Of a stretch of 64,000 nt of DNA, positions 48,431 through 53,998 are shown piece after piece. The stretch is taken from contig CAWFFN010000005.1 in assembly GCA_963815115.1 (NCBI GenBank), positions 1,600,001 through 1,664,000 on the forward strand, given 5' to 3'. The DNA is from an uncultured delta proteobacterium (GTDB lineage Bacteria > Desulfobacterota > Binatia > DP-6). The notes under the pieces were generated by a model. The model saw nothing but the letters and a program-made list of their open reading frames with translations, had not been told where the DNA came from and searched no databases. The first letter of the stretch is position 1. Every line of letters begins with the position of its first letter. Both the position numbers and the translations under genes were made by a program.

Positions 48431-51400
48431 CTACTGCTCGAGTATGGCCTGCGCGAGGCGCAGGTCGCGCAGGTCCAGGCCTTCGCTGAACGCTGCGACC
48501 AGCGGCCGGAGGAGCGCCACGGCTTCGAGGCGCCGTCCCTGCTCCGACCAGAGCCGCGCCAGGTCGGTTGCCGCTCGCAGCTCGTGCATCGAGGCGTCGA
48601 ACTCCCGCGCCAGGTCGAGCGCGCGTCGGAAGCAGGCTTCCACCTCGGCTGCTCGTGCCGCCGGGTCGGTTCCCCAGAGCAGCAGGTCGCCGCGGGTGAG
48701 GTTCAGCTGGATGAGGTGGAAGCGCTGGCTCGTGCGCTCCGCGTCGGCCATCCCCTCGGCAACGAGTGCGAGCCCTTCGGCCACGCGACCCGTCATCCCC
48801 GTTGCGTGGGCGAGCAGCGCGATGGTCCCGGGCCGGGCCACGGCCGCGCCCGTGGCCTCGTAGCCGGCGAGGGAGTCGCGCAGACGGGCGATCGCGTCGT
48901 CGGGACGCCCCTGCAGCAGGCATGCCCAGCCCTCCAGGGTGGCGCCGACGGCGCGCTGGTACGCGAAGCCCTCCTCGTCCGAGATGGCAGAGGCGCGCGC
49001 GAGATGGGTCAGGGCAGCCTCCGACTCCCACCGGAACAGGCGGACCATGGCGGCCGACAGGTGCGCGAAGGTGAGTGAGAACGGATGCCCGAGGCGCTCG
49101 GCCAGCGCGAGCCCTTCCTCGACGCTCCGCAGGGCCTGGTCGGGAAGGCCACGTGCCCACTGCACCCACCCGAGCCAGCTCCGGCACGCGACGCCGGGAT
49201 CGTAGCCGCCGTACACGGACACGTGCACGGGATGGGTGTAGGGATCGTAGAGCACGAGCGCGCGCTCGAGGTGAACCTGCGCGCGTTCGAGCTTGACCAG
49301 GTCGTACAGCGTGACGCCGTGGCCGTAGTGGGCCTGGACCTGTGCCACCAGATCGTGCGTCTTCTCGCAGAGCGCGAGCAGCTCTTCGCCGACGTCGCGC
49401 GCCCTGCGATGCTCCGCACGCACCTGGTAGAACGACACCAGACCGCGGAGCAACGGGAAGAGGTGGGGTCCGCCGGTCGTCAGGCGCGAGAGGGCGTGCG
49501 CACGCTCGAAGACGCGTTCGACCACCGGCGCGGCGTAGCCGCGCGTGGACATGAGCGGCGTGGCGAGCTTCACCTGCAGCGCCAGCTCGAGCTCGTTGCG
49601 CTCCGCCGTCTCCGGCAGGGTGGCGAGCTGGCGGAGCGCCTTCGTGAAGTGCTCGATGGCCTCGTGGTCGGCGTGGCGTGCGACGGCGTTGTCACCCGCC
49701 CGCGTGTGGTACGACATGGCCTGTCGCGTGTCGCGCGCGGCCGCGAAGTGCGCGGCGAGCTCGCCGGCGATCTCGCCGGCATGGGCGCCGAATGCGGCCA
49801 CCTTGCGCGCGGCGATGCGCCGGTGCAGCCGGACGCGCCGCGCCTCGGCCACGCGGTCGTAGAGGACGTCGCGGTAGAGCGCGTGCACGAAGCGGTAGCG
49901 GCCGCTGATGGTTCCATCGGGCCACTCCTCGACACCGGCCGCGTGGATGAAGTGTCCCTTCCACGCCAGCGCCTCGAAGCGGTCGTCGAGCGCCTCGGCG
50001 TCGCACTGGAGCGCGGTCGCCACGCCGGCGATCGAGAACTCGGAGCCCATCACGCTGGCCGCCTCGAGCGCCTGTCGATCGTCGGGAGCGAGGGTCTCGA
50101 GCTGGCGCTCGATCATCTGCCGCAGGCTGTCGGGTACGGCCGACTCCAGGGCGCCGGCCCCGCCGCGCAGCGTCCAGCGTCCCGACTCCTCGGCGAGGAA
50201 GCCCTCGCGGACCGCGAAGTCGACCACGTTGACGAGGAAGAGTGGATGCCCGTCCGTGCGCTGATGGATCAGGCGCGCCAGGTCGTCGTCGACCCGGCCC
50301 CCCAAGAGGCGGCCGCGCAGGTAGTCGCCGACGTGCGGCGGTGCGAGCGGCGCGAGCTGGATCTCCTCGCCGCAGCGGCGCGCCTGGAGCTCCTGCGCGA
50401 TCGCGCGCAGCGGCAAATCGCCGCGCTTGGCCTCGGCGGGCCTGTAGGTGCCGATCAGCAGGAGGCGCGCGGTCGTCCGTCGCTGCGCGATGTAGGCGAT
50501 CAGCTCGAGCGTGGAGTGATCGCTCCAGTGCAGGTCCTCGAGCACCAGGACCATCGGTCGCTCTGCCGTGGCCGCTTCGAGCAGCTCGGCCATCTCGCGC
50601 AGCATGCGCTCGCGGGTAGCCCCCTGCGCGCGGTTCCGCAGTGCGCCGTGCTCCGACGGATCGAGCAGGGTGGGAAGCTGGGCCAGCCAGGTCGGCGCGT
50701 GGAGGCGCAGGTGGCTCATCAGGGACTCGCCGGCGGCGGTGCGCGCGAGGTGCGTCCATGCCTCGAGCACGGGCAGGTACGCCTCGCCGATCCCGTACTG
50801 CTCGACCGACTGTCCGCGCGCGACATGGGTGCCACCGGCGGCCTGGACGCGCTCGAGGAAGGCGTCCACGAGGGTCGTCTTGCCGATCCCTGCCGGGCCG
50901 CAGATGAAGGTCACTCCGCGGGTACCCCGGCGCGCGCGATCGAGCGCCTCCTGGAGGTGCGCGAGCTCGCGCTCGCGCCCGACCACCTGCGCCGCGAGCG
51001 CCAGGACGCCCACCGCGGTGGCCTCCGCCTCCTGAGCCCGCGCCGACACCTGGACGGCGAAGCGGTACTCCCGCTCCGGGGCCGGCGCCGCCGCGAGGCG
51101 CGCTACCGGCGCCGCCTCCCCGGGCGGCAGCGGTGTGAAGGCCGGGTCGCCGTAGAGGAGATAGCTCGCCCACGTGAGCCCCTGCCGGCCGCGCTGCGCG
51201 ATGATGGCATGGCGGGCCTCGAGGAGCGCCTGGCCGAGGCTCGCGCCCGTCGCCAGGGCGCGGTAGCACATGCTGGCGAAGAGCACGCTCTCGTCGTCGT
51301 GCACGACCCAGAACGTGCCCACGTAGTTGCGCACGCCGGCCAGTAGGAACGCGCTCCCGAGCCCGAAGGCGTGACCCTCGTATCGGTAGCCTCCCTCCCA

Positions 51401-53063: not shown

Positions 53064-53998
53064 GGCTTTGCCTCCGCCGGCTTCCACCGTTGCTCCAGGC
53101 GCTGACGCAGCCGGAAGATACGCGAGCACACGGTACCGACCGGGGAGTTCAGCAGACGCGCAATGTCCTTGTACGGCGTGGTCATCTTGAACTCCCGAAT
53201 CTCGTCGAGGAGCCCCTCACGCTGGCGCATGCGCTTTGCGAGCGCATGTTCGAGATCGCCCCGGCGTTCGACGAGTCGCCGTGCCGTGGCCGAATTGTGG
53301 TTTGACCCTATGAGACGCAATCGCTCGTTCGTTTCTTGCAGCTCGCGCTGGCGAAGCACGATCCACCCCCAAACCGAGTCCAGATCGTCGCGCAGCCGGG
53401 TCAGCTTGACGTCGCGTCCGCGCAGCCCGGCCTCCACCTCGGCGAGGAGCGCGGCGGTGTCCGGGAGGGATCGCCCCGACAGCCGGGAGAGCAGGCGGAT
53501 GTCGTCGGACGTGAGCTGGTACTCCAGCAGCGAGAGGAGCTTCAGATCGAGCTGCTCCTCGGGGTCGAGCGTTGCCCAGACGGTGGCAATCCCGTCGGCG
53601 GCGGGGGCCACAGCGGTCTCCTCGCGGGTCCCGGGATCGGAAGCGGACCCGTCGTCCGCTCCGAGGTGGCGGTCGCTCAGCGAGACCGTATCGAGCTCGC
53701 GGTTTCGCCGCTGCCACTCGAGAAAGAGGCTGCGCAGGACGTAGTAGCCGAGGAAGGTGCGGAACTGGATGCCGTTCCGCCCTTCGAACGTCCGCATGCG
53801 GGTGAATATCCGGTCGCGCTCGAAGACGTAGACGTAGAAATCGACCGCTCGCTCGGTCGGCACGCCGTAGATCTTGACCGGGAAGTTGTAGATGTCCTCG
53901 CCGTAGCGCTCCTGGAACGCGCGGCGCGCCGCGGCATCCGCGTCGGCGCAGGCGCGAACGAGATCGCGGACGTCGTCGGGGTCGATCCGGCGGCGCAT
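53060..53998 (-). CDS. ECF-like sigma-70 family RNA polymerase sigma factor with an insertion in region 4
   Basis: Region 2: LVRAC..D.AA..F..RY...IY, F.GR..FRTFL..V...FLEW.RR. Region 4 HTH: YKDIARLLNSPVGTVCSRIFRLRQRL. Confidence 0.85.
   Translation of the reverse strand: MRRRIDPDDVRDLVRACADADAAARRAFQERYGEDIYNFPVKIYGVPTERAVDFYVYVFERDRIFTRMRTFEGRNGIQFRTFLGYYVLRSLFLEWQRRNRELDTVSLSDRHLGADDGSASDPGTREETAVAPAADGIATVWATLDPEEQLDLKLLSLLEYQLTSDDIRLLSRLSGRSLPDTAALLAEVEAGLRGRDVKLTRLRDDLDSVWGWIVLRQRELQETNERLRLIGSNHNSATARRLVERRGDLEHALAKRMRQREGLLDEIREFKMTTPYKDIARLLNSPVGTVCSRIFRLRQRLEQRWKPAEAKP

Follow-up and report, generated by a model that had tools for sequence, protein, structure and literature searches.

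The minus strand of this soil bacterium, which belongs to an uncultured Binatia group, carries a three-gene unit that is probably a protease-triggered gene switch working without CRISPR. The unit lies in a 64-kb stretch of DNA, the whole of which is referred to as the window. It comprises, all on the minus strand, a divergent ECF-type sigma factor (53060..53998, 312 aa), a cytoplasmic anti-sigma factor with tandem zinc anti-sigma (ZAS) motifs (52233..53063, 276 aa, GTG start, enclosing ORF 52233-53129) and a CHAT/AAA_16 STAND NTPase/TPR-like protein (48431..52171, 1246 aa, GTG start). Within ...CCGTGAGC..., the end of sigma runs into the beginning of anti-sigma (GTG/TGA, written GTGA), an overlap that is retained in most loci, and a spacer of 61 nt leads from the anti-sigma stop to the GTG of the 1246-aa gene. 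A previous reading of the letters alone (the sequence-only reading) had announced three co-directional genes with a GTGA overlap and a gap of about 60 nt, and all of these are in place. An SRPBCC (Polyketide_cyc2-like) gene (54011..54562, minus strand; Pfam 2.9e-5, below cut-off) is a fourth co-directional member, its 3' end being 12 nt upstream of sigma, and is probably co-transcribed with the trio in this genome. It is nonetheless outside the conserved core, its adjacency to sigma being kept in the nearest relatives only (one of 20 loci, L002). The other neighbours are housekeeping genes (formate-dehydrogenase-like, histidine kinase, amidohydrolase, KARI and glycosyltransferase genes), the position of the trio is syntenic within the genus, and a comparison across loci gave no conserved promoter upstream of the sigma genes.

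The description of the sigma factor as ECF-like holds with a restriction. The protein narrowly passes the NCBIfam model of ECF sigma-70 factors (TIGR02937, 45.9 bits for a cut-off of 42.9) and its profile matches sigma-4 of solved ECF sigma factors (E 7e-4 to 9e-3), while among the Pfam models Sigma70_r4_2 stays under its cut-off (23.2 versus 25.7 bits) and Sigma70_r2 gives no match. From the N terminus, it consists of sigma-2-like helices (residues 7-97, 53708-53980), a disordered acidic linker (residues 101-131, 53606-53698) of low confidence in the AF2 model, whose pLDDT is 82.6, a helical insert with a coiled-coil hairpin (residues 132-269, 53192-53605) and a sigma-4.2 helix-turn-helix (residues 276-305, 53084-53173). 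ECF (group IV) factors typically display sigma-2 and sigma-4 separated by a short linker, with Pfam regions 2 and 4 detectable; here about 170 residues separate the sigma-2-like part from the sigma-4.2 helix-turn-helix. Because of this spacing, of the missing Sigma70_r2 and of the sub-threshold Sigma70_r4_2, we call the protein ECF-like and divergent rather than a plain ECF sigma. Its 343 relatives are, without exception, annotated merely as 'sigma-70 family'.

By model match and HxxxCxxC motif, the second protein is a class I zinc anti-sigma (ZAS). The tandem zf-HC2 architecture first proposed is borne out by a match to zf-HC2 (PF13490) in two stretches (42.9 bits, cut-off 22.2, E 5e-11) and by the two complete motifs HVDTCDTC (H28-C35, 52959-52982) and HLAGCDVC (H93-C100, 52764-52787). 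Residues C68, H93, C97 and C100 are invariant in 18/18 sequences, as are S240 and T243 in the same family alignment. The AF2 model (pLDDT 83.6) displays two three-helix bundles and a beta domain, the latter corresponding to the beta-rich C-terminal domain, or beta-sandwich (residues 144-275, 52239-52634). Searched against the PDB, the anti-sigma profile retrieves RsiW (2.5e-5), the ZAS domain of DdvA (9.8e-5) and RsrA (5.5e-3), as well as RslA; the matches with E < 0.3 cover the ZAS part only, and the single match in the beta-sandwich is 4v4c (E 0.41). No hydrophobic stretch occurs in the protein (maximum KD19 = 1.27).

The 1246-aa protein has the CHAT/STAND/TPR-like architecture that had been assigned to it, the TPR part through sub-threshold family matches. 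The CHAT protease domain (residues 79-342, 51146..51937) scores 107.6 bits against PF12770 (cut-off 24, 1.1e-30), and a profile search of the genome for CHAT gave a match at the same coordinates. The sequence-only reading had placed an intact-looking His/Cys dyad near 51545 (HFAGH) and 51423 (SNSC); we find HFAGH (residues 206-210) at 51556-51542 and the codon of C250, which ends SNSC, at 51424-51422, so those coordinates are correct. The CHAT protease looks active because H206, H210 and C250 are invariant in 15/15 aligned relatives, the catalytic His being one of the two. The AAA_16 STAND NTPase (residues 395-573, 50453..50989; 100.3 bits, cut-off 32.6, 2.2e-28) follows, with a Walker A (GPAGIGKT, residue 425, 50876-50899) and a Walker B (VLVLED, residue 541, 50534-50551) that are intact here and in the six complete STAND-type orthologues examined (L002-L006, L013). 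The C-terminal TPR-like superhelical region (residues ~760-1246, 48434..49894), a putative sensor, gives sub-threshold Pfam matches to TPR_12, TPR_1, TPR_2 and TPR_4 and is 60-77% identical among orthologues. Furthermore, a resemblance to the STAND-TPR part of TIGR03903 extends over residues 393-1206 (255 bits for a cut-off of 705.75).

The co-occurrence of the three genes across genomes, which the sequence-only reading had proposed as a check, goes far beyond chance and persists across rearrangements. Among 301 genomes of the class, 21 places encode a full-length anti-sigma (E < 1e-50); at 19 of them a CHAT gene lies within 5 kb, the other two being contig ends, and sigma is likewise adjacent at 19/21. 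From metagenomes, 80 loci were taken with the CHAT alignment, and all three genes are present in 36 of the 43 that could be judged on enough flank. Within the 80, anti-sigma stands at a contig edge in 12 and is without sigma despite room in two, neither partner is found in five loci with at least 2.5 kb on each side and in nine with room upstream only, and 16 are cut at the edge. The compared genomes are related, so these counts are not independent events. Linkage is retained through at least three gene orders (sigma-anti-sigma-CHAT, CHAT upstream on the same strand, and divergent) and at least four architectures of the CHAT tail. Indeed, AAA_16 is present in only 1/10 sampled trio-linked metagenome CHAT proteins, the tails of relatives being TPR only, cyclase-like/SnoaL or none recognised; it is CHAT, and not the STAND NTPase, that recurs as the constant partner. 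Five of the 43 fully judgeable metagenome loci, together with one genome (G429), have the CHAT subfamily or the sigma without its partners, and another family encodes this CHAT subfamily (52% identity) as a fusion with a Ser/Thr kinase and HEAT repeats, a nearby sigma being absent, indicating that this subfamily is able to work in other settings. A fused anti-sigma/CHAT protein was searched for and none was found, which is weak evidence against the module proposed below.

Sigma and anti-sigma are adjacent in both clades of this sigma, and in the CHAT-less sister clade the tandem-ZAS anti-sigma has an SH3 C-terminus replacing the beta-sandwich. Conversely, in another family, a protein with a single ZAS and a beta-sandwich is encoded directly upstream of a 40%-identical CHAT (L066, G340, G408, G202, G451). 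Judged from these sequences, the C-terminal beta-sandwich of the anti-sigma accompanies CHAT. Complex modelling, also suggested in the sequence-only reading, places the anti-sigma on CHAT: with CHAT residues 1-380, the beta-sandwich is docked on the protease domain with a score of 0.67 (runs 0.66, 0.67 and 0.70), the best of three controls reaching 0.27. The 0.67 mark is reached by 58/80 solved complexes and 2/110 mismatched pairs, counts that hold only roughly because our own alignments were used for the model. At least 88% of contacts are common to all runs, with a partner pLDDT of at least 77. The modelled interface opposes a predicted docking helix and edge strand of CHAT (residues 161-194, 51590-51691) to anti-sigma residues 228, 236-242 and 252-255, i.e. 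the most conserved strand of the sandwich; the predicted CHAT-docking surface (residues 228-255, 52299..52382) holds the conserved GRSI(F/Y)SARTD strand. This interface is remote from the CHAT dyad and no anti-sigma segment is placed in the active site. By sequence, no similar solved complex was found, the best CHAT match in the PDB having an E of 0.058.

We give about an even chance to a cytoplasmic three-component module in which CHAT, once activated by its sensor, cuts the anti-sigma docked on it so that sigma is released. Sigma would be held inactive by the translationally coupled tandem-ZAS anti-sigma, as family membership and universal adjacency suggest, and the beta-sandwich of the latter would dock on the CHAT domain of the third protein, as the model and domain co-variation indicate. 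The variable C-terminal module, here the STAND NTPase and TPR, would detect an intracellular signal and switch on the CHAT dyad. Active CHAT would then cut the anti-sigma tethered to it. The cut would most likely fall in a flexible segment of the latter (residues 56-61, 134-140 or 177-184), the resulting fragment would be lost or degraded, and free sigma would direct RNA polymerase to its regulon. Cutting and sigma release are proposed by analogy with Csx29-Csx30-CASP-sigma. The sequence-only reading had put forward a chain running from TPR sensing to STAND oligomerisation, CHAT activation and anti-sigma cleavage; its protease end gains from the co-occurrence, the invariant dyad and the docking model, while its STAND step does not stand as the core of the system, given the single AAA_16 among the ten sampled proteins and the existence of TPR-only and SnoaL-tailed relatives. 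As the NTPase is not constant, the apoptosome-like step would be one sensor option among several.

Other arrangements of the same components have to be weighed. CHAT could act on sigma itself, for example on the linker 101-131, the anti-sigma being an adaptor and sigma being shut off or processed. The unusual 30-residue low-confidence linker and the helical insert speak for such a target, an anti-sigma docked on CHAT as modelled would also bring bound sigma near, and for ECF54 it has been suggested that neighbouring CHAT, carboxypeptidase or subtilase proteins exert control of this type (PMC8999054). However, the CHAT-less sister clade has both linker and insert to the same extent, so that neither is CHAT-specific, the CHAT-specific element being the anti-sigma beta-sandwich, and ECF54 is described without an anti-sigma (PMC8999054, PMC7826278), unlike the trio here; we hold cleavage of sigma to be improbable. 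The same low likelihood is given to the absence of any direct proteolytic link, with an anti-sigma that would be a thiol/redox sensor of the RsrA type and a CHAT-STAND protein that would be a regulon member or a co-transcribed effector. Its two complete HxxxCxxC motifs, the RsrA match of its profile (E 5.5e-3) and a gene order compatible with an autoregulated operon fit this redox reading, which leaves unexplained why the C-terminal domain of the anti-sigma varies with the presence of CHAT, why the docking model scores above its controls and why linkage is retained when CHAT is divergently transcribed.

That the modelled interface is remote from the dyad could rather point to a partner switch without cleavage, where the activated sensor would bind the beta-sandwich and pull the anti-sigma off sigma, the dyad cutting other proteins or itself. 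Partner switching is an established route to free ECF sigma factors, as with NepR/PhyR (PMC4551977). Yet the dyad is invariant in 15/15 and the protease domain is kept as partner while the tail changes, which would be hard to explain were catalysis irrelevant; we consider this the least probable of the three alternatives. Cleavage of the docked anti-sigma by CHAT is the reading preferred here.

As regards its biological role, the module had been offered as a possible defence system, for which direct support is lacking. An antiphage role, as an NLR-like receptor with defence-gene transcription as output (compare craspase and DdvA/DdvS), appears rather doubtful. Its distribution within families is patchy (f1 6/24, f4 9/48, f88 6/20), some genomes (G445, G465, G493) have several copies, the sensor tails are interchangeable, and a role as immune receptors is discussed for STAND proteins that carry a caspase-like protease at the N terminus (PMC13581612). 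On the other hand, PADLOC-DB 2.0 returned no match under E 0.004 for the module proteins, the marginal ones being BovA (E 0.0042) and PDC-M68B (E 0.0076), and zero matches for the anti-sigma and the SRPBCC protein; the housekeeping neighbours and the syntenic position within the genus do not favour defence either, and none of 20 viral-contig candidates is a relative. The statement that the window contains no cas genes extends genome-wide for the Cas1 (PF01867) and RAMP (PF03787) families, with 0 matches in this 100%-complete genome, and the window contains no CRISPR-like tandem array. Membership in type III-E craspase was accordingly rejected, the latter being an analogue only.

The same genome encodes a second, divergent trio about 1 Mb away (G000:C5, about 648-652 kb), whose members are an ECF-like sigma (207 aa), a protein with tandem HxxxCxxC motifs (299 aa) and a CHAT protein (805 aa). 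The 299-aa protein aligns with the anti-sigma family with an hhalign probability of 94.6, and the gene order is retained in 8/9 relatives fetched. This second trio speaks in favour of the three-component reading. The presence of two divergent trios in one genome, together with tails that can be swapped, points to a signalling family characteristic of the soil class Binatia.

The association of CHAT with sigma regulation is already in print, in the conserved context of ECF54 sigma factors (PMC8999054) and in the DdvA anti-sigma/TPR-CHAT fusion (PMC11506125), so that the idea is less new than the sequence-only reading assumed and adds to a theme shared by craspase, DdvA and ECF54. We tentatively suggest, at somewhat less than even chances, that free-standing caspase to anti-sigma to sigma switches exist outside CRISPR, tethered by docking and with interchangeable tails, of which the regulatory arm of craspase and DdvA would be special cases. 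If so, both would be instances of an older and more general design, and in the form seen here an NLR-like STAND protein would act on transcription through anti-sigma cleavage rather than kill the cell, making a non-lethal output possible for bacterial STAND/caspase proteins. Such a compact three-protein system could be rebuilt in E. coli, where it could probe the substrate choice of CHAT and serve as a protease-gated transcription switch. 

Among proteases acting on sigma inhibitors, CalpL-CalpT-CalpS of type III-B CRISPR provides a parallel, in which the ECF sigma is bound by an anti-sigma-like protein that a signal-activated protease cuts. CalpL is a Lon-like protease with a SAVED sensor for cyclic oligoadenylate and no CHAT, and the system is CRISPR-linked. 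The likeness lies in the signal-activated attack on a sigma inhibitor, and the protease type differs (Lon-like there, CHAT here). Caspase-like-protease STAND proteins share with the present protein the combination of protease, STAND NTPase and repeat sensor (PMC13581612), together with the expected ligand- and NTP-driven activation of the protease. They are discussed as direct effectors (PMC13581612), and neither the sections of that article dealing with them nor the main text of PMC7159879 mentions a sigma/anti-sigma partner; the present NTPase belongs to the AAA_16 type, and many relatives do without it. ECF54 resembles the trio in that genes for CHAT-domain proteins are conserved in the genomic context of its ECF sigma, proteolytic control having been proposed from context alone (PMC8999054, PMC7826278). 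These factors are, in their published description, actinobacterial and without anti-sigma (PMC8999054, PMC7826278), which sets them apart from the present sigma, with its long insert and a dedicated anti-sigma always adjacent.

The nearest likenesses are craspase and DdvA. Type III-E craspase combines a TPR-bearing CHAT protease with a dedicated ECF-type sigma and its inhibitor, inhibition being relieved by CHAT cleavage (PMC10028731): Csx29 cleaves Csx30, relieving inhibition of CASP-sigma, the cut falling in the C-terminal part of the inhibitor and the N-terminal part holding sigma (PMC10028731). Craspase uses Cas7-11 and crRNA, which have no counterpart here, nor does the genome encode Cas1 or RAMP proteins; target RNA activates craspase, whereas a STAND NTPase/TPR or another tail would do so in the trio. 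The trio has a classical tandem ZAS as its putative inhibitor, Csx30 being absent from the PDB matches of the latter, and the CHAT domain is marginally similar to solved CHATs (E >= 0.058). In Myxococcus xanthus DdvA-DdvS, a ZAS anti-sigma is coupled to a TPR-CHAT with a conserved His-Cys dyad, and the ECF sigma is proposed to become free when a signal induces CHAT to cleave the anti-sigma (PMC11506125); among the PDB matches of the present anti-sigma, the ZAS domain of DdvA ranks second. DdvA spans the membrane as a single polypeptide whose CHAT is periplasmic, and it depends on RseP (PMC11506125), while here the anti-sigma and CHAT are separate and cytoplasmic, joined by a predicted docking domain, and the order runs from CHAT to a sensor tail with an NTPase. 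CHAT-controlled release of ECF sigma factors has thus far been linked to craspase, within CRISPR, to DdvA, as a membrane-spanning fusion, and to ECF54, from context alone; the present locus would add a soluble and modular version, in which a separate sensor-protease acts on a classical zinc anti-sigma via a docking domain.

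The divergent ECF-type sigma factor, the tandem-ZAS anti-sigma factor and the 1246-aa CHAT protein are encoded in a run of four co-directional genes on the minus strand of the window, headed by an SRPBCC-like gene (54562-54011; Pfam Polyketide_cyc2 at 2.9e-5, under the cut-off). The sigma gene (312 aa, 53998-53060) starts 12 nt past the stop codon of the latter, the GTG start codon of the anti-sigma gene (276 aa, GTG at 53063) overlaps the TGA of the sigma gene, and the gene of the 1246-aa protein (52171-48431) starts 61 nt past the anti-sigma stop. The domains that the sequence-only reading had assigned to these products are borne out by profile searches, with CHAT at 1.1e-30 and AAA_16 at 2.2e-28 in the 1246-aa protein, whose TPR families stay sub-threshold, zf-HC2 at 5e-11 over two stretches of the anti-sigma, and, for the sigma, TIGR02937 sigma70-ECF at 45.9 bits (cut-off 42.9). 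The motifs of the large protein are likewise intact: HFAGH occupies residues 206-210, SNSC runs to C250, and Walker A and Walker B lie at 425 and 541. A sequence scan revealed no membrane-like hydrophobic stretch in any of the three trio proteins.

The flanking genes are ordinary chromosomal ones, namely a molybdopterin oxidoreductase, a convergent PAS histidine kinase, an amidohydrolase, a KARI-SnoaL fusion, glycosyltransferases and an STT3-like transferase. The G+C content of the window is 71%, the source genome measures 6.9 Mb in 12 contigs, and the close relatives of the window genes are found in MAGs labelled Candidatus Binatia, 'Deltaproteobacteria bacterium' or 'Thermodesulfobacteriota bacterium'. 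Several genes of the window deserve mention in their own right. The Amidohydro_3 enzyme is seemingly split into two overlapping plus-strand frames (54612-55355, profile positions 2-144; 55093-56373, positions 177-471), which may reflect a frameshift or an assembly error. At 59911-63793 (plus strand), a GT4 glycosyltransferase gene, whose product also matches the 'GT4-conflict' family (4e-10), overlaps or directly adjoins the gene of an STT3/PglB-like oligosaccharyltransferase of 961 aa; together with several GT2 genes at 31304-37254, these genes suggest a cluster for protein or envelope glycosylation. Two unusual fusions are encoded on the plus strand, one joining cNMP-binding, glutaredoxin and pyridine nucleotide-disulphide oxidoreductase domains (1539-3635), the other a ketol-acid reductoisomerase and a SnoaL-like domain (56377-57774). 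A further large AAA_16 STAND-type protein of 1191 aa, devoid of CHAT and with 90 N-terminal residues lacking assignment, is encoded at 12918-16493 (minus strand).

The AF2 model of the sigma (pLDDT 82.6, from a 23-row alignment) begins with sigma-2-like helices (7-97) and ends in a helix-turn-helix (276-305); between them lies an acidic, disordered segment (101-131), followed by three short helices and by a long coiled-coil hairpin (178-269). We call this protein a divergent ECF-like sigma because solved ECF sigma-4 domains match its helix-turn-helix only (E 7e-4 to 9e-3), while Pfam does not find region 2 and places region 4 under the cut-off. Its family counts 343 detectable members in a collection of 5.8 billion proteins, the most specific name being 'sigma-70 family'. 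In the anti-sigma model (pLDDT 83.6), two three-helix ZAS bundles (6-54 and 71-116), each with an HxxxCxxC motif, precede a beta-rich domain (144-275), and low-confidence loops occur at 56-61, 134-140 and 177-184; no residue of the second CHCC set varies among the 18 sequences compared. Foldseek returned nothing at E <=0.001 for the whole sigma and anti-sigma models, which are multi-domain and flexible, and their secondary-structure layout alone was used. In the PDB, the anti-sigma profile matches the anti-sigma domains of RsiW, DdvA, RsrA and RslA. Against 1.84 billion representatives, the same profile retrieved 7991 proteins at E <=0.001, 614 at E <=1e-10 and 53 at E <=1e-30. Many of the matches are giant proteins in which the beta-sandwich domain is repeated; therefore, only single-stretch matches of about 270-300 aa were counted as members of the family. 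A search for longer proteins containing the anti-sigma found no fused form, which is weak evidence.

The sequence-only reading asked for a test of whether the three genes are conserved together, and this holds in genomes as well as in metagenomes. In 20 loci fetched with the sigma, tblastn places the anti-sigma beside the sigma in 17 and a CHAT domain nearby in 14, the remaining loci mostly ending at contig edges. In the 301-genome sample of the class (genomes being designated G and the families within the class f), the sigma is present in 62 genomes (a tally including G378) and splits into a close clade with at least 49% identity (f1, f4, f88) and a distant one with 35-42% (f90, f92, f97), and the anti-sigma profile search reached 152 genomes (including G378 and G407). 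G378 and G407 enter these tallies only, and supplied none of the loci described. Full-length anti-sigma matches (E <1e-50) occur at 21 places in 20 genomes of this sample; a CHAT domain lies at most 5 kb away at 19 of them and a sigma is adjacent at 19, the two places devoid of CHAT (G264, G481) both being cut by contig ends. As for the close-clade sigma, CHAT lies within 5 kb at 16 of 21 places, and four others are cut by a contig end and not judgeable (G296, G481, G264, G211); in G429, a close-clade sigma with room beside it adjoins neither CHAT nor a recognisable anti-sigma. Since the class genomes overlap the 20 sigma-fetched records, these two sets are not independent.

For the metagenomes, the CHAT alignment served to retrieve 80 loci, which were then searched with sigma and anti-sigma HMMs made from the respective alignments. 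Both partners are found in 36 of these 80 loci, whereas the others show an anti-sigma at a contig edge (12), an anti-sigma with room but no sigma (2), an edge cut (16), or neither partner, either with flanks of 2.5 kb or more on each side (5) or with room upstream only (9); the whole trio is thus present in 36 of 43 fully judgeable loci. The linkage is conserved across rearrangements, at least three gene orders being observed (sigma, anti-sigma, CHAT; CHAT upstream on the same strand; CHAT divergent), and the overlap of the sigma stop with the anti-sigma start is retained in most loci. No RNA dataset carrying the locus is listed among five soil-metagenome runs (each share <=0.20).

The constant partner of the sigma and anti-sigma is the CHAT domain with an N-terminal extension of about 65 residues, and the tail is variable. 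Among the loci of relatives (L numbers), the tail consists of AAA_16 and TPR (L002-L006, L013), of TPR only in proteins of 846-851 aa (L011, L015), or of SnoaL_3 in a protein of 918 aa (L014). Ten complete CHAT proteins were sampled from those linked to a trio in the 36 metagenomic loci; they carry TPR only (four), AAA_16 and TPR (one), a cyclase-like domain and SnoaL_3 (one) or no recognised tail (four). The C-terminal domain of the anti-sigma accompanies CHAT: immediately upstream of a CHAT of 40% identity, family f86 encodes a shorter protein in which a single ZAS is joined to this beta-sandwich, whereas the distant sigma clade, which lacks CHAT, has an SH3 domain at the end of the adjoining tandem-ZAS protein. 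In this sister clade (f90/f92; L052:8835-13605 and L058:8048-12852), the sigma gene is followed by the genes of the tandem-ZAS-SH3 anti-sigma, of a protein of 536-573 aa and of a tRNA U5-methyltransferase-like product. The third of these four genes has no Pfam match, its hhalign comparison shows no resemblance to CHAT (probability 0.03), and its atlas scores do not exceed 0.83. Separately, a CHAT of the trio's own subfamily (about 52% identity) stands between an N-terminal Ser/Thr kinase and C-terminal HEAT repeats at L064:7857-10451 and L065:8233-11082, with neither sigma nor anti-sigma nearby. A sigma copy broken into three pieces beside a STAND-TPR gene devoid of CHAT (L019:8001-8878, in different frames, and G445:C10:39723-40591) probably represents a paralogue of the module in decay.

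Furthermore, the source genome holds a second trio on the minus strand, outside the window and about 1 Mb from the first (G000:C5 ~648,400-652,400; locus L075:6407-10398). Its CHAT gene, the only other one of the genome, encodes an 805-aa protein whose CHAT domain is 27% identical to the first, and upstream lie a 299-aa protein with two HxxxCxxC motifs and a beta C-terminus (hhalign probability 94.6 to the anti-sigma family) and a 207-aa ECF-like sigma, with Sigma70_r2 and Sigma70_r4_2 matches at 1e-4, both under their cut-offs. The same gene order is kept in eight of nine fetched relatives, the ninth having no sigma match, and four of these genomes (G143, G299, G331, G315) gave no match to the sigma of the first trio in the search of the class sample. 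Sigma, tandem-ZAS-sandwich and CHAT therefore constitute a recurring design in the class and not a single accident.

Complex prediction with the CHAT part (residues 1-380) and the anti-sigma, each given as an alignment, yielded a score of 0.67 (runs 0.66, 0.67 and 0.70), compared with 0.27 for the best of three controls. In the calibration of the tool, that mark is attained by 58 of the 80 solved complexes and by two of the 110 mismatched pairs, figures that apply only roughly here, as our own alignments were used. The runs share at least 88% of contacts, with a partner pLDDT of at least 77, and the modelled interface pairs a CHAT helix and edge strand (161-194) with anti-sigma residues 228, 236-242 and 252-255, the segment being the GRSI(F/Y)SARTD strand, the most conserved stretch of the beta-sandwich. 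Sequence comparison with the PDB found no similar solved complex, so the prediction is unlikely to reproduce a known structure. The model supports docking of the beta-sandwich on the CHAT domain, its score being a predicted confidence and not a measured quantity; the docking lies away from the dyad, and the active site holds no substrate segment.

We infer a scheme of sigma binding, activation, cleavage and release acting on some regulon, which would be the most economical reading of our analysis. The sigma would be held by the tandem-ZAS domains, and the sigma/anti-sigma complex would be tethered to the CHAT domain via the beta-sandwich. The tail would then detect a signal and switch on the dyad; in the source genome, this tail would be the STAND NTPase with a TPR-like sensor, the expected trigger being nucleotide-dependent assembly. 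The tethered anti-sigma would finally be cut by CHAT in a flexible loop, setting the sigma free. CHAT might instead cleave the sigma itself, but the sigma linker and insert are present in the CHAT-less clade too. Two other explanations dispense with proteolysis of the anti-sigma, one being a ZAS switch driven by redox alone, for which CHAT is cargo, the other a partner switch; both are disfavoured by the invariant dyad and by the way in which the beta-sandwich co-varies with CHAT.

As regards the promoter through which such a sigma might act, a bipartite k-mer count over 25 distinct upstream regions found no motif beyond shuffles (best single-spacer motif in 5 sequences versus 3-4 in shuffles; best merged motif in 8 versus 6-7), and MAFFT alignments of upstream regions contain no block common to different groups, a short block being common to one genus only. 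A consensus promoter/terminator scan gave 0 sites, which is uninformative at 71% G+C.

A role in defence is possible, albeit unsupported. No PADLOC model matches, no relative occurs among 20 viral-contig pattern matches, and the syntenic position of the locus in the genus among housekeeping neighbours counts against it. Likewise against it, the absence of cas genes, pointed out for the window by the sequence-only reading, extends to the genome, in which no Cas1 or RAMP family was found. The patchy distribution, the extra copies in some genomes and the swappable sensors are consistent with a conflict system and equally with environmental signalling.

In the literature searched, including the ECF re-classification (PMC7826278), the 2026 STAND survey (PMC13581612) and the 2020 conflict-systems paper (PMC7159879), each in its main text, we found no description of a soluble sigma/ZAS anti-sigma/CHAT-sensor trio, nor of an anti-sigma that has a STAND-CHAT protein as its partner. 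Supplementary tables could hold one, and similar contexts could stand in the ECF group tables of PMC7826278 or in table S7 of PMC11506125. The case is so far wholly computational, and the module is readily testable by reconstituting the three proteins. CHAT-controlled sigma release is described in three forms in the sources consulted: shown for craspase, proposed for DdvA, the Myxococcus xanthus anti-sigma/TPR-CHAT fusion, and deduced from context for the sigma group ECF54 (PMC10028731, PMC11506125, PMC8999054, PMC7826278). The cut of the anti-sigma proposed here parallels the one proposed for DdvA (PMC11506125). It also parallels Csx29, Csx30 and CASP-sigma of the type III-E CRISPR craspase, where cleavage of Csx30 in its C-terminal part relieves the inhibition of CASP-sigma (PMC10028731).
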